Assembly (NCBI RefSeq): GCF_013122565.1
Contig: NZ_CP053258.1
Reading direction: 5' to 3' (one strand)
Length of the DNA: 64,000 nucleotides
From: Escherichia coli
GTDB taxonomy: Bacteria > Pseudomonadota > Gammaproteobacteria > Enterobacterales > Enterobacteriaceae
Both the position numbers and the translations under genes were made by a program. Positions 595 through 3,703 of the stretch are shown one piece after another (the first letter of the stretch is position 1; every line of letters starts with the position of its first letter). The notes under the pieces were generated by a model. The model searched no databases. It was not told the DNA's origin and saw nothing but the letters and a program-made list of their open reading frames with translations.

Positions 595-1380
595 TTAGGA
601 ATTAAATGTCCAGCTACCCGTATCGGTCACAATGTCAGCTTCAATGATACGGTCACACTTCATATATTTGAACGTAGCCACATCACCGAATTTATATTTT
701 GCTGGCAGGGTTCTGTTACCGACGCTCTCCATTTTACAGTTCCCTCTGTTTACCCGAATGGATTTCAGCACCACGTTGTCATCAGTGATAGTGAGCTGAA
801 TAACACCATATCTGGTATTCCAGCCTTCATTGCTGACGGAGCTGCCGAACTGAACTTTAAATGGTGGTGTCGTAGATTGCTGTACCTGCTGTTGTTGAGA
901 GGGAGCAGGTTTATTAGCCTGCTGGCTACCAACGCTATTAATGCCATTCTGAAGGAGGCTCCTGGAAACCTTAATGGTACCCGGCTTGCATGATACTGTG
1001 CTGGTTTCCTGCCCCATTGCATTCATGACAGTGTAATAAGCATCACCTGTACCATCATATTCTGAGTAATTGACTGCAACCGCGCCTTCGATATCTTCAT
1101 TTTCTCCACGTAATGTGAAAGAAGCAGTTCCTGCTCCCGGATTAGCCGCCAGAGTCTGTTTCGCTTCGCCGGAAGGAATATCCAGTTTGATAACGGAACC
1201 ACCTTCTTCGGAGTCACCACCTGGCGTTTCAAAACTGATATAAACGGTATTACTGACGTGGCTGAGTGTCATTTGCTCACCGTTATCAAGCAGACATTGC
1301 AGGTCATAGGCCCCGACAGCATAAGCAGGGTGGAATGCAAATAAAGATACAAACAATACAGGTATAATGATTGGTTTCAT
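595..1380 (-). CDS. hypothetical secreted protein (261 aa) with N-terminal signal peptide
   Basis: Hydrophobic N-terminus MKPIIIPVLFVSLFAFHPAYA; Gln-rich linker; starts 12 bp after the upstream GTPase gene, suggesting an operon. Confidence 0.55.
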   Translation of the reverse strand: MKPIIIPVLFVSLFAFHPAYAVGAYDLQCLLDNGEQMTLSHVSNTVYISFETPGGDSEEGGSVIKLDIPSGEAKQTLAANPGAGTASFTLRGENEDIEGAVAVNYSEYDGTGDAYYTVMNAMGQETSTVSCKPGTIKVSRSLLQNGINSVGSQQANKPAPSQQQQVQQSTTPPFKVQFGSSVSNEGWNTRYGVIQLTITDDNVVLKSIRVNRGNCKMESVGNRTLPAKYKFGDVATFKYMKCDRIIEADIVTDTGSWTFNS

Positions 1381-1392
1381 TAAGCACTTTCC

Positions 1393-2406
1393 CTATCCAA
1401 AAAAATGGTCCCAGGCATTACCAGCCCACTCGATAAGTTTGTCTTTCCCCTTACGGGTAAGCTCTTTGACAGGCTTTGGTAACGGAAAAGAATCAATAAC
1501 GTCGTCGAGTATCCCGGAGATTACGCTGCCAAAGCCGTTTTTTGCTTCCGTCTTTACTTCGTCGGTTTTGAACTCATCCTTAACCTGCGAAGCCGTGCTA
1601 CTTTTAGCCCGATCAGGCAAAGCCCGAATAATAGTCTCTACCAGACGAAGAATGTTGTAGCCCTCATCGGCGGAGACAGGTGTCACCGGATAGTGCGTAA
1701 AACCAAATCGTTCAGTAATGTAGGCTTCTTTCTTTTCGATGTTGATGCGCTGTGCAGGAGATGGCTGATGCAGATGAGTATCCCACTCGCGGAATGGCTC
1801 AATTTTATCAACCTGGTTAAGGACGAATAAAACGCGCTCACCCCCACCAGCAGGGAGCAGAACATTGTTGTAGAAATGCTCATCCGCAGAAAAGGCCCGA
1901 TCGTCTCCTTTTATTACCCACAGGATAAGATCCAGGGAGGGAAGCAAATTGCGGTATAAATCTTCATACTCCTTATCCCGCCGGGCATTCTCACCGACAC
2001 CAGGTATATCAATGATCTTTAGCGAATGTTTGCCGAAGCGTATACGCAATTCCTGAACTTCGCGAGTACATGCCTCAACGTCGCTAACTGCACAAACCTC
2101 CCCTTTAAACAGCGCATTACATACGCTGCTTTTCCCCGCGCCTGTTTTTCCCATGACACCAATCACGGGTTCATAGTCGATGGCTTCACTGATTTTGTTC
2201 AACAGCTTTTCCCGCAGTGGCTGAGGGAAAATATCAAGAATATCCCTGATGTCGGGTATGTGCGGTTTGCTATCACCTTTTTGCTCGTTGCTACCATTAC
2301 GTTCTGGAAATATATTGCCCCACATTCCAAAAATCCCGCCTTCCCTTCTGGTGACGCCACTGGCATCAGTAATCATCCGGCCTTCGCCCTTTACCGGGTC
2401 ATCCAT
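1393..2406 (-). CDS. YeeP/YfjP/YkfA-like prophage GTPase (337 aa)
   Basis: P-loop GKTGAGKSS and DIPG G3 motif in translation; this family is typical of CP4-type cryptic prophages in E. coli. Confidence 0.7.
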   Translation of the reverse strand: MDDPVKGEGRMITDASGVTRREGGIFGMWGNIFPERNGSNEQKGDSKPHIPDIRDILDIFPQPLREKLLNKISEAIDYEPVIGVMGKTGAGKSSVCNALFKGEVCAVSDVEACTREVQELRIRFGKHSLKIIDIPGVGENARRDKEYEDLYRNLLPSLDLILWVIKGDDRAFSADEHFYNNVLLPAGGGERVLFVLNQVDKIEPFREWDTHLHQPSPAQRINIEKKEAYITERFGFTHYPVTPVSADEGYNILRLVETIIRALPDRAKSSTASQVKDEFKTDEVKTEAKNGFGSVISGILDDVIDSFPLPKPVKELTRKGKDKLIEWAGNAWDHFFG

Positions 2407-2445
2407 ACGAGGTCTCCTTTTTTAATTTGAAATAAACGTTGTCTG

Positions 2446-3129
2446 TTACTCTCTGAAGGTCTGAATTACGTCACTTATGAAACGAAAGTGAGGGAGGGCT
2501 GAAATGAACTCTTCACTGGCAGTCAGAGCGTCAAGTTCAGGCTTTCTGCGAAAAGAAGTATCCAGAACAGTTACAGCGTTAACGTCTTCCATCCGAAACA
2601 CCTGTAAATTTCTGGTGCGGGTAGCAACAAGAAACCAGTTTTTGGACTGAAATATCAGACGGCGGGGAGCTACTGCTTCGTAGCTTTTACCGTTAACTAA
2701 TAATGTAACGGCGCGGTAGTCGCGGATAGCTTCCGCCAGTTCCAGAAAACAGGCAGTCTGCGTGACGGGAGAAGATAATGCCCCATGCCCAATAAGACAC
2801 GGCGATACGCCGGAATTGCTGGCAATCAACCGGATCAACTTGCGGTTCTGAGCCGGAATGATTCCTGAAATTCCTGAATTACGTATAAACGCAAATGTAT
2901 TGGGTGAGTGCTCCCGGCCTGTTTGGCGGATAAGTCGGTAACTTCCGCTGCGATGCTCAAGATCCAGATGGATCAGGCGTTGCTGAAAATCCCGCTGTAG
3001 GGTGCGTTCTGAGACACCAAATTCATCAGCTAATGCTTTAAGCTCCAGAGATTCGCCAGCCAGTAAGCGGCTGATAATGACCGATAGCCTGACAGACAGG
3101 CGGTCATAATGATCATGCTGTGTTTTCAT
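2446..3129 (-). CDS. YfjR-like HTH transcriptional regulator (possibly WYL-domain)
   Basis: Translation from the internal Met MKTQHDHYDRLSVRL...GVSERTLQRDF has an N-terminal HTH; the ORF track extends to 3216 but no RBS is visible there; start uncertain. Confidence 0.55.
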   Translation of the reverse strand: MKTQHDHYDRLSVRLSVIISRLLAGESLELKALADEFGVSERTLQRDFQQRLIHLDLEHRSGSYRLIRQTGREHSPNTFAFIRNSGISGIIPAQNRKLIRLIASNSGVSPCLIGHGALSSPVTQTACFLELAEAIRDYRAVTLLVNGKSYEAVAPRRLIFQSKNWFLVATRTRNLQVFRMEDVNAVTVLDTSFRRKPELDALTASEEFISALPHFRFISDVIQTFRE

Positions 3130-3703
3130 AGTGGGGACAGTCCTGTTCTCCCAAAATATCATGGTATTGATACAGGAGATTATGCCGTACAGGTACGACA
3201 CGTTATGTCGTACCAAATGGGGAGTGGTTTGAAAAAATGGCGAAGATGCGAAGAGTTGATTAATTCATTGAAATAAAATGAATTAATAATGATTTTGGGT
3301 AAAAGCGGCATCAAAATACGACACTACCTGTCGTATTTTGTGTTAGCCGGGAAAGGATATCTGTTACTTACTAAAATGATTTAGTGCTGAAAATATTTAT
3401 AAGCTAATAAATAGACAGGTATTACGGAGTAACGCCCAGGCTATGTTAACGAGCCCGCTGTTTTATTGGCTCAAAAAACATATCCCATAGATGTTCAGCC
3501 ATACCCTCGTTAGTGAGCAAGGTATCCCTTGAGTAGCCAGGGCTGAAGACGCCCATTGATGGGCGAAAACCAAGGATCTGGCCGTTAGAACAGTTATGTC
3601 GTTAAACACATCACCACCATATGCCATCCGGCTCACTTCGTCGGCCAAATTAGTGTGATATTCTTTCCAGAAATGCTGTTGTATCCACGACATAAGGCGA
3701 TGA

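Follow-up and report, generated by a model that had tools for sequence, protein, structure and literature searches.

A YfjR-type regulator, a YfjP-family GTPase and an exported protein in a putative autoregulated operon beside the variable defense cargo of an Escherichia coli leuX island

Gene content and transcription of the locus

Three adjacent genes near the start of a 64,000-nucleotide stretch of Escherichia coli DNA (the window; contig NZ_CP053258.1, assembly GCF_013122565.1) were analyzed; they encode a YfjR-family transcriptional regulator, a GTPase of the YfjP/YeeP/YkfA family and an exported protein. An earlier interpretation made from the letters alone (the sequence-only reading) had placed a co-oriented regulator, GTPase and secreted protein gene at positions 595 to 3216 and had suggested that they form a functional module. 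All three genes were present at these coordinates on the minus strand (Table 1), and database comparison bore out their identities. The regulator, described as YfjR-like with a helix-turn-helix (HTH), is 41% identical to YfjR of E. coli K-12 (E = 1e-55) and carries HTH and WYL signatures. The P-loop GTPase is 42% identical to YfjP over 285 amino acids (aa) (E = 5e-77) and matches MMR_HSR1 at 4.4e-16. The third product has a classic signal peptide at its N-terminus (MKPIIIPVLFVSLFAFHPAYA and then VG, as judged by eye), and its gene follows the GTPase stop codon after exactly 12 bp, as had been noted. The gap between the regulator and GTPase genes is 39 bp, and an AGGAG Shine-Dalgarno sequence at 2414-2418 precedes the latter.

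The trio appears to be transcribed as a single unit. The hairpin 3' of the exported-protein gene has a folding energy of -23.8 kcal/mol (z = -3.4), and none of 200 shuffled sequences was equally stable. Within the trio a consensus scan for terminators flagged a single 5-bp stem (2812-2800, inside the regulator gene); since only 2 terminator-like sites were found against 3.3 expected from shuffles, this stem is taken as chance, leaving no convincing intrinsic terminator inside the trio. Comparison of all three genes with their orthologues in five other genera gave dN/dS ratios of 0.04-0.14 at dS 0.3-1.1, which therefore indicates intact, real genes under purifying selection. The ratio was 0.04-0.10 for the regulator gene and 0.09-0.14 for the GTPase gene.

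The regulator gene almost certainly starts at the ATG at 3129 and most likely yields a product of 227 aa, and not at the TTG of the longer open reading frame (ORF), because the RefSeq homologues are 684 nt long, homologue alignments begin at MKTQHDHYDRL, and a conserved palindrome (O2, below) falls within the TTG-extended frame.

Table 1. Positions of the trio, its putative control elements and neighboring features in the window
Feature	Position	Strand	Remarks
End of an "inovirus Gp2 family" gene	1-56		Backbone gene
AlpA-family excisionase/regulator	174..392	+	Pfam Phage_AlpA 3.2e-10; annotated in relatives; convergent with the operon and outside it
Intrinsic terminator of the operon	527..576	-	Two-tier hairpin (576-539), then U-rich tract; folding versus shuffles
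Exported two-domain protein, 261 aa	595..1380	-	Signal peptide residues 1-21
YfjP/YeeP/YkfA-family TRAFAC GTPase, 337 aa	1393..2406	-	MMR_HSR1, YfjP identity
YfjR-family HTH-WYL transcriptional regulator, 227 aa	2446..3129	-	Short form without C-terminal WCX domain; identity to YfjR
Same gene, longer ORF with TTG start	3216..2446	-	ORF list
CATAAT, candidate -10 hexamer	3179..3184	-	7 nt downstream of O2; invariant in alignment
O2, candidate autoregulatory operator	3192..3214	.	Perfect palindrome GGTACGACA-taacg-TGTCGTACC, 9-bp arms, 5-bp spacer; 81 bp upstream of the regulator start codon
O1, candidate operator	3312..3340	.	Perfect palindrome CAAAATACGACA-ggtag-TGTCGTATTTTG, 12-bp arms, 5-bp spacer; 204 bp upstream of the regulator start codon
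Two inverted copies of the O2 half-site ACGACATAA	3594..3695	.	3594-3602 (-) and 3687-3695 (+); just upstream of hsdR
hsdR, type I restriction-modification (R-M)	3707-7120		Start 3704/3707
hsdM, type I R-M	7184-8818
hsdS, type I R-M	8815-9990
PDC-M01A/B, candidate defense system	9987-12594	+	PADLOC; directly after hsdS
DUF4365 protein	12843-13847	-	Pfam 5.2e-36; between PDC-M01 and the integrase
Tyrosine integrase	14151-15419
tRNA-Leu(CAA), leuX	15619-15703

A short HTH-WYL regulator and its candidate operators

The AlphaFold2 model of the regulator (predicted local distance difference test, pLDDT, 73) has an N-terminal HTH (helices at residues 4-51 and then a beta-hairpin), which a linker joins to a WYL beta-barrel. 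The (winged) HTH matched Pfam HTH_11 at 1.8e-4 and HTH_DeoR at 3.7e-3. The WYL domain, an Sm-like beta-barrel whose strands at 139-192 were modeled with pLDDT 84-92, matched the PADLOC WYL model at 2e-17 and Pfam WYL at 6.8e-4. Searched against the PDB, the regulator-family profile found the WYL domains of PafBC at 7.8e-11, and the top Foldseek matches to the model were PafBC, CapW, DriD and BrxR, full-length and with E values from 6e-7 to 2.5e-5. The protein ends about 35 residues past the WYL barrel and has no C-terminal WCX dimerization domain; the WCX-bearing BrxR and CapW proteins have about 285-330 aa.

Two perfect palindromes, O1 and O2, lie upstream of the regulator gene. Their common form TACGACA-N5-TGTCGTA occurs in the window at these two places only, with 0 occurrences expected from 100 shuffles. 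In an alignment of 8 loci from 5 genera, spanning Photorhabdus to E. coli, both palindromes and the leader between O2 and the start codon hardly vary, and O1 keeps the same offset in loci L014-L019. Of 45 YfjR-family regulator genes from other species, 32 have the core GACA-N5-TGTC in the 300 bp before them, at the fixed offsets -81 and -190/-204; those loci contain 55 such sites in their whole 553 kb. By our tally of all 68 sites, 39 precede a regulator gene by no more than 450 bp, and about 9 others are linked to one in a different manner. The bases flanking the core co-vary with the regulator subfamily (CGACA..TGTCG versus GGACA..TGTCC), and K-12 yfjR has CGGACA-N5-TGTCCG upstream. Genomic systematic evolution of ligands by exponential enrichment (gSELEX) has assigned the yfjR operon to YfjR as its regulation target (PMC8249747).

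Used as a -10 element, the CATAAT hexamer would put O2 over the -35/spacer region of a promoter. BrxR binds inverted repeats (10-11 bp, 5-bp spacer) that precede its own gene (PMC9122601), and the predicted sites O1 and O2 have the same layout. Because the geometry of GACA-N5-TGTC equals that of the experimentally defined BrxR operators, we infer an autorepressed operon with O2 placed over its promoter.

The O2 half-site ACGACATAA occurs three times in the window, each time within the same 500 bp (3203-3695; 0.35 expected), and two of the copies form an inverted pair just upstream of hsdR. The same pair is found upstream of hsdR in E. coli loci without the trio (L096 and L097). These may be extra regulator sites on a divergent cargo promoter or a coincidence traveling with hsdR.

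Longer WYL regulators (302-312 aa) with a C-terminal WCX-like extension were seen paired with other GTPase subfamilies (loci L022-L026 and L082, from Buttiauxella, Intestinirhabdus, Limnobaculum and metagenome-assembled Enterobacter genomes). The L082 gene has a palindrome with 13-bp arms 67 bp upstream, TTGCTTACTGACA-N5-TGTCAGTAAGCAA, with the core GACA-N5-TGTC as well. In a further locus (L008, GCA_002230735.1, 6600-9400) the trio is decayed, all three genes being present as frameshifted fragments while both operator palindromes remain; the 370-aa protein P0042 is a chimera that arises from a wrongly called ORF of this pseudogene.

The GTPase and the exported protein

The GTPase shows the motifs G1 GKTGAGKS, an invariant ACTR at the switch I position, G3 DIPGVGE and G4 NQVDK, and the G1, G3, G4 and ACTR motifs as well as the C-terminal tail are invariant or nearly so in the family alignment. 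No transmembrane segment was detected (maximum KD19 1.0). The C-terminus forms a conserved basic amphipathic helix (hydrophobic moment 0.5-0.7) that closes in W-x-x-F-F, a feature compatible with possible peripheral binding to the inner membrane. The closest solved relatives by sequence are the G domains of EngA/Der and Era, the only ones returned by the PDB search. The family comprises 1723 clusters at E <= 1e-10, and no functional study of YfjP, YeeP or YkfA was found in the literature searched, in agreement with the sequence-only reading, which had called the family widespread in E. coli cryptic prophages but without established function.

Membership of the GTPase in Eleos (LeoA/LeoBC) was considered and rejected. 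Like Eleos proteins it has a G domain (PADLOC LeoBC 8.9e-12 and LeoA 1.3e-7; Pfam Dynamin_N 6.9e-11), but only residues 48-209 match, to positions 47-197 of the 601-position LeoBC model, so that about 150 residues of models of 560-600 residues are covered. The stalk and paddle are missing, the NCBIfam LeoA/HP0731 model scores 15 bits against a cutoff of 325, and the locus has a single 337-aa gene, not a LeoA and LeoBC pair, with no second dynamin-like gene.

The exported protein consists of two beta-rich domains joined by a glutamine-rich linker (residues 150-170). The N-domain (about 22-150) has invariant cysteines C29 and C131 and belongs to a narrow family that also includes stand-alone proteins of 115-157 aa. 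The motif of the C-domain (171-259) is VNRGNC...FG...C..IEA, with C225 and C242. A full-length profile searched against 1.8 billion representatives matched 409 proteins at E <= 1e-3; the weaker matches fall mostly on the C-domain, and many of those listed are about 110-125 aa long, roughly a signal peptide plus the C-domain. Clustered, the family amounts to 42 clusters as against the 1723 of the GTPase. The C-domain also occurs in signal-peptide proteins of jumbo phages, namely RisingSun gp79 of Erwinia and proteins of Klebsiella phage Eowyn and Aeromonas phage CF8 (phrog_36014; 32-46% identity to residues 171-259). These share the VNRGNC and second-cysteine motif as well as the N-terminal signal peptide, but they are single-domain proteins of 115-141 aa, whereas the window protein adds an unrelated N-domain and the linker.

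The sequence-only reading had proposed a structural check of the secreted protein and had held that kinship to a phage structural or adhesin family would speak against a module. The fold search that was run, like the sequence searches, returned no adhesin or phage structural family. A sequence search of the PDB gave no match, BLASTP against YfjS and YfjT was negative, and a word-indexed search with the C-domain alone returned fragments only. Alignment by hhalign of both domains with 12 other small exported families found beside the GTPase in other loci, including YfjS- and YfjT-like ones, gave probabilities of at most 3.9%.

In a Serratia locus (L007 8499-9224) and in locus L010 (8528-9247) a separate exported protein of 239-241 aa follows the N-domain protein, and it is fused to the N-domain in P0172 and P0174, metagenomic or genomic single proteins of 349-372 aa. 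This gene fusion suggests that the two exported proteins may work together.

Conservation of the trio across genomes

The neighborhood was compared in 80 GTPase loci, one genome per species, of which 68 were evaluable. ORFs were labeled by homology and by a signal-peptide heuristic whose hit rate was 3.5% on cytoplasmic controls and 88% (45 of 51 members) on three exported families. Only the closest GTPases (at least 86% identity) stand in the exact arrangement regulator, GTPase and two-domain exported protein; they come from Photorhabdus, Xenorhabdus, Huaxiibacter, Citrobacter and one further enterobacterium. In this set the dN/dS and dS values given above indicate genuine co-maintenance and not recent copying. 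The counterpart in Serratia, a variant with 3-bp coupling, consists of a truncated HTH gene, the GTPase gene and genes for an N-domain protein of 157 aa and an exported protein of 241 aa.

A YfjR-type regulator is adjacent to the GTPase at 38 of the 68 loci (upstream in 10, downstream in 28), and at least one exported-type protein stands in the co-directional run after the GTPase at 44. The N-domain family is present at 9 loci and the full two-domain protein at 4. The most frequent arrangement runs from the GTPase through the operator and the regulator to between one and three small exported proteins or lipoproteins, and on to DUF932, ArdB and RadC. The unit that recurs across Enterobacterales is a YfjR regulator with small, freely swapped exported proteins beside the GTPase, and co-conservation of the trio, proposed earlier as a check, was seen in the five genera of the nearest subfamily but not beyond it.

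The junction of island backbone and defense cargo at leuX

The sequence-only reading had placed the trio at the left edge of an island. This did not hold: the genes sit between variable cargo on the right and a backbone that continues to the left of the window. The island is of the tRNA-integrated CP4-57/CP4-44 type; the window itself carries the integrase and tRNA-Leu(CAA), AlpA and the Gp2 tail, while DUF932, RadC, YeeU, CbtA and DUF4942 were seen only in homologous E. coli islands (on the left side) and in the 80 species loci. The leuX site is E. coli defense hotspot #37 (PMC10121019, PMC12707154).

In a set of 5426 complete E. coli genomes, 565 matched part of positions 1-3700, and in 207 the match covered at least 80%. 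The core genes have about 96% identity to E. coli, which points to that species or a close relative as the source. The conserved block stops at about 3218/3238 or at 3587, and the cargo beyond differs (R-M genes, Toll/interleukin-1 receptor (TIR) proteins, or ABC-3C at selC in Nissle). By these comparisons the trio marks the junction of conserved island backbone and exchangeable defense cargo.

Breakpoints were also observed at the outer edge of O2 (3192-3238; E. coli hits H33-H45), where matches on the left run to 3218/3238 and those on the right start at 3214/3232; the regulatory region seems to be a recombination junction. In E. coli O169:H41, a copy of O1 (AAAATACGACAcgaccTGTCGTAATTT) travels with hsdR with no regulator gene beside it. 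The 3.7-kb block with the Gp2 tail, AlpA and the trio was found once on a 93.8-kb E. coli plasmid (NZ_AP023207.1, 76081-79788, 95.7% identity, hit H20); the module is therefore able to move onto plasmids.

Interpretation and alternatives

The trio is best read, with a probability of about 0.55, as one autoregulated operon in a conserved CP4-57/CP4-44-type backbone at a tRNA gene, adjoining the variable leuX cargo and carrying an envelope-directed payload. A dimer of the YfjR-family HTH-WYL repressor would bind the GACA-N5-TGTC palindromes O1 and O2 and, with O2 overlapping the probable promoter, would keep expression of the operon low. Repression would be lifted when the WYL domain senses a ligand, by analogy with BrxR, CapW, DriD and PafBC; PDB entry titles for CapW and DriD show single-stranded DNA bound. 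The payload would comprise two proteins: a YfjP-family GTPase in the cytoplasm, whose amphipathic, aromatic C-terminus might attach it peripherally to the inner membrane, and a disulfide-bonded two-domain periplasmic protein. In this subfamily the GTPase has presumably been brought inside the operon. Its role may be an envelope-directed accessory or conflict function, for example exclusion of incoming phage or DNA. The strong bias of the slot toward exported proteins, the defense-island setting, the defense-type WYL regulator and the phage-shared exported domain all favor such a role, which is put forward with low confidence; the free swapping of exported proteins beside the GTPase argues for a payload that is envelope-directed and not housekeeping.

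Several observations weigh against this reading. The Pfam HTH and WYL matches to the regulator lie under the gathering cutoffs (for WYL, 20.0 bits against 21.8), and its oligomeric state and ligand response may differ from those of BrxR and CapW given the missing WCX domain. Binding of YfjR in K-12 was not found by chromatin immunoprecipitation with exonuclease digestion (ChIP-exo; PMC8464067), and the YfjR literature searched held only this negative result and the gSELEX assignment to its own operon. No minus-strand promoter turned up before the regulator gene in a sigma-70 consensus scan. In the commonest architecture the operator follows the GTPase gene, which leaves the GTPase outside the regulated unit. 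Some GTPases are directly followed by DUF932 or by a 1179-aa signal-peptide ORF, and the presence of a regulator was not significantly associated with that of an exported protein (Fisher's exact test, p = 0.12), both of which speak against strict coupling. Full-length Pseudomonas homologues of the exported protein (40% identity) have no GTPase or regulator nearby, and one enterobacterial island has the N-domain protein without the GTPase. In PADLOC-DB v2 the GTPase had only generic G-domain matches, the regulator only generic WYL matches and the exported protein none; the fold search with the exported protein gave no informative match and no functional lead. The proposed envelope or exclusion role is drawn from context throughout. 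The earlier idea of a functional module accordingly stands in part: the single putative operon, the conserved candidate operators, purifying selection and the neighborhood counts agree with it, but the components are separable and their co-occurrence falls short of significance.

That separability is what a doubtful but weighty alternative builds on, in which the synteny reflects common descent of the backbone and no joint function. The position after the GTPase would be a cargo slot for unrelated exported "moron" genes, the GTPase would serve island biology (establishment, transfer or maintenance) independently, and the regulator would control itself and whatever lies downstream. The slot indeed holds many unrelated families (more than 10 clusters), and hhalign finds no homology between either domain of the window protein and any of the others; DUF932 or the 1179-aa ORF can take the place straight after the GTPase, the Pseudomonas homologues stand alone, and both the disparity in cluster numbers and the non-significant association fit. 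On this account, however, the tight coupling (12 bp here, 3 bp in Serratia) with a single terminator and the intact trio in five genera at dS up to about 1 are harder to accommodate, and exported-type proteins at 44 of 68 loci against a false-positive rate of 3.5% amount to a cargo-class bias that needs explaining.

It is rather unlikely that the regulator chiefly switches the divergent defense cargo (type I R-M and PDC-M01) in a BrxR-like manner, with the GTPase and exported genes riding along on the autoregulated transcript. In all E. coli relatives examined the regulator does adjoin variable cargo (R-M, TIR or ABC-3C), O1 is on the cargo side, the ACGACATAA copies are confined to the interval from the regulator to hsdR, with one copy 9 nt ahead of the start of hsdR, and BrxR-family regulators co-localize with diverse defense islands (PMC9122601). 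But in E. coli genomes without an adjacent regulator, hsdR is still accompanied by the half-sites close to it and even by a copy of O1; because the sites persist there, control of hsdR through ACGACATAA is kept as a minor possibility only. O1 is moreover about 370 bp from the hsdR start, and the commonest architecture puts the regulator downstream of the GTPase, far from the cargo. Quite improbable, in turn, is a dedicated anti-phage system made of the trio itself, with a WYL repressor silencing a toxic or membrane-remodeling GTPase and a periplasmic sensor or blocker until infection. Its location in the most densely occupied E. coli defense hotspot, a regulator of a defense-associated class, a G domain nearest to LeoBC among the PADLOC models (8.9e-12) and the C-domain common to jumbo phages would suit such a system; yet the trio belongs to the conserved backbone and not to the variable cargo, PADLOC has no defense-system model that matches, the LeoBC match is confined to the G domain of the 601-position model, and the components are separable in other genomes.

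The preferred reading of an autoregulated operon can be carried further to a broader and rather improbable proposal. The short YfjR WYL repressors would be nucleic-acid-sensing master switches of CP4-type islands across Enterobacterales, whose operators are freed by phage infection, DNA damage or island excision, turning on a membrane-associated GTPase and rapidly diversifying periplasmic proteins as a hitherto unrecognized envelope exclusion or defense layer, perhaps with co-regulation of divergent cargo. If so, the diversity of the exported proteins and the domain shared with jumbo phages would reflect an arms race.

Relation to known systems

The K-12 prophage CP4-57 carries the series yfjP-yfjQ-yfjR-ypjK-yfjS-yfjT (yeeP is found in CP4-44) and shares the regulator family (41%) and the GTPase family (42%) with the window locus. 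In both, a GACA-N5-TGTC palindrome precedes the regulator gene, small exported proteins or lipoproteins are encoded downstream of it, and the backbone includes AlpA, Gp2/YfjJ, DUF932, RadC and CbtA/YeeU. In the window, in contrast, the gene order is permuted, with the regulator first and the GTPase within its operon; the exported protein is of another family without similarity to YfjS or YfjT; and the island is at leuX, whereas CP4-57 is at ssrA. With BrxR/CapW-type repressors the locus has in common the N-terminal HTH and WYL fold, an inverted-repeat candidate operator with a 5-bp spacer upstream of the regulator's own gene and neighboring defense systems. It differs in the short regulator (13-18% identity), and its downstream genes encode a GTPase and an exported protein, not a bacteriophage exclusion (BREX) or cyclic oligonucleotide-based antiphage signaling (CBASS) system.

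The gene families and the island type were already known, though uncharacterized, and the locus is a moderately new arrangement of them. Added here are the predicted family-wide operator GACA-N5-TGTC, the corrected gene start, the island context, the bias toward exported proteins in the slot next to the GTPase and the link of the C-domain to jumbo-phage proteins; these additions are helpful for annotation and experiment and unlikely to surprise a specialist. Cryptic islands with YfjP/YeeP/YkfA GTPases and YfjR regulators are present in nearly all E. coli and in many other Enterobacterales, and the operator motif together with the exported-protein bias gives leads for annotating such islands. 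With regulator, GTPase and exported protein in a single putative operon and two sharp candidate operators, the locus is a clean test case that makes the YfjR regulon, the inducing signal and a joint phenotype of the GTPase and the exported protein accessible to testing. It also marks a boundary of defense-cargo exchange at the leuX hotspot.

Other features of the window

A scan of positions 1-4000 with Rfam returned nothing credible, so no IsrC-like small RNA is present there. A 103-aa ORF at 3463-3774 on the minus strand overlaps the hsdR start in antisense, has no annotation in relatives and is probably spurious. The PDC-M01 genes match their PADLOC models almost end to end (PDC-M01A, an AAA_21/PtuA-like ATPase, at 4.6e-239 and PDC-M01B at 1.4e-107) and lie in a low-GC stretch (0.31-0.34 across 9-14 kb), which suggests a separately acquired cargo cassette within the type I R-M locus. 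The DUF4365 protein also matches the PADLOC model Aga_REase-PNTD1-PNTD2 at 5.2e-23 and is probably another defense-related nuclease. Far from the trio, a second sharp GC dip (0.30) at positions 30001-31000 suggests another horizontally acquired insert.

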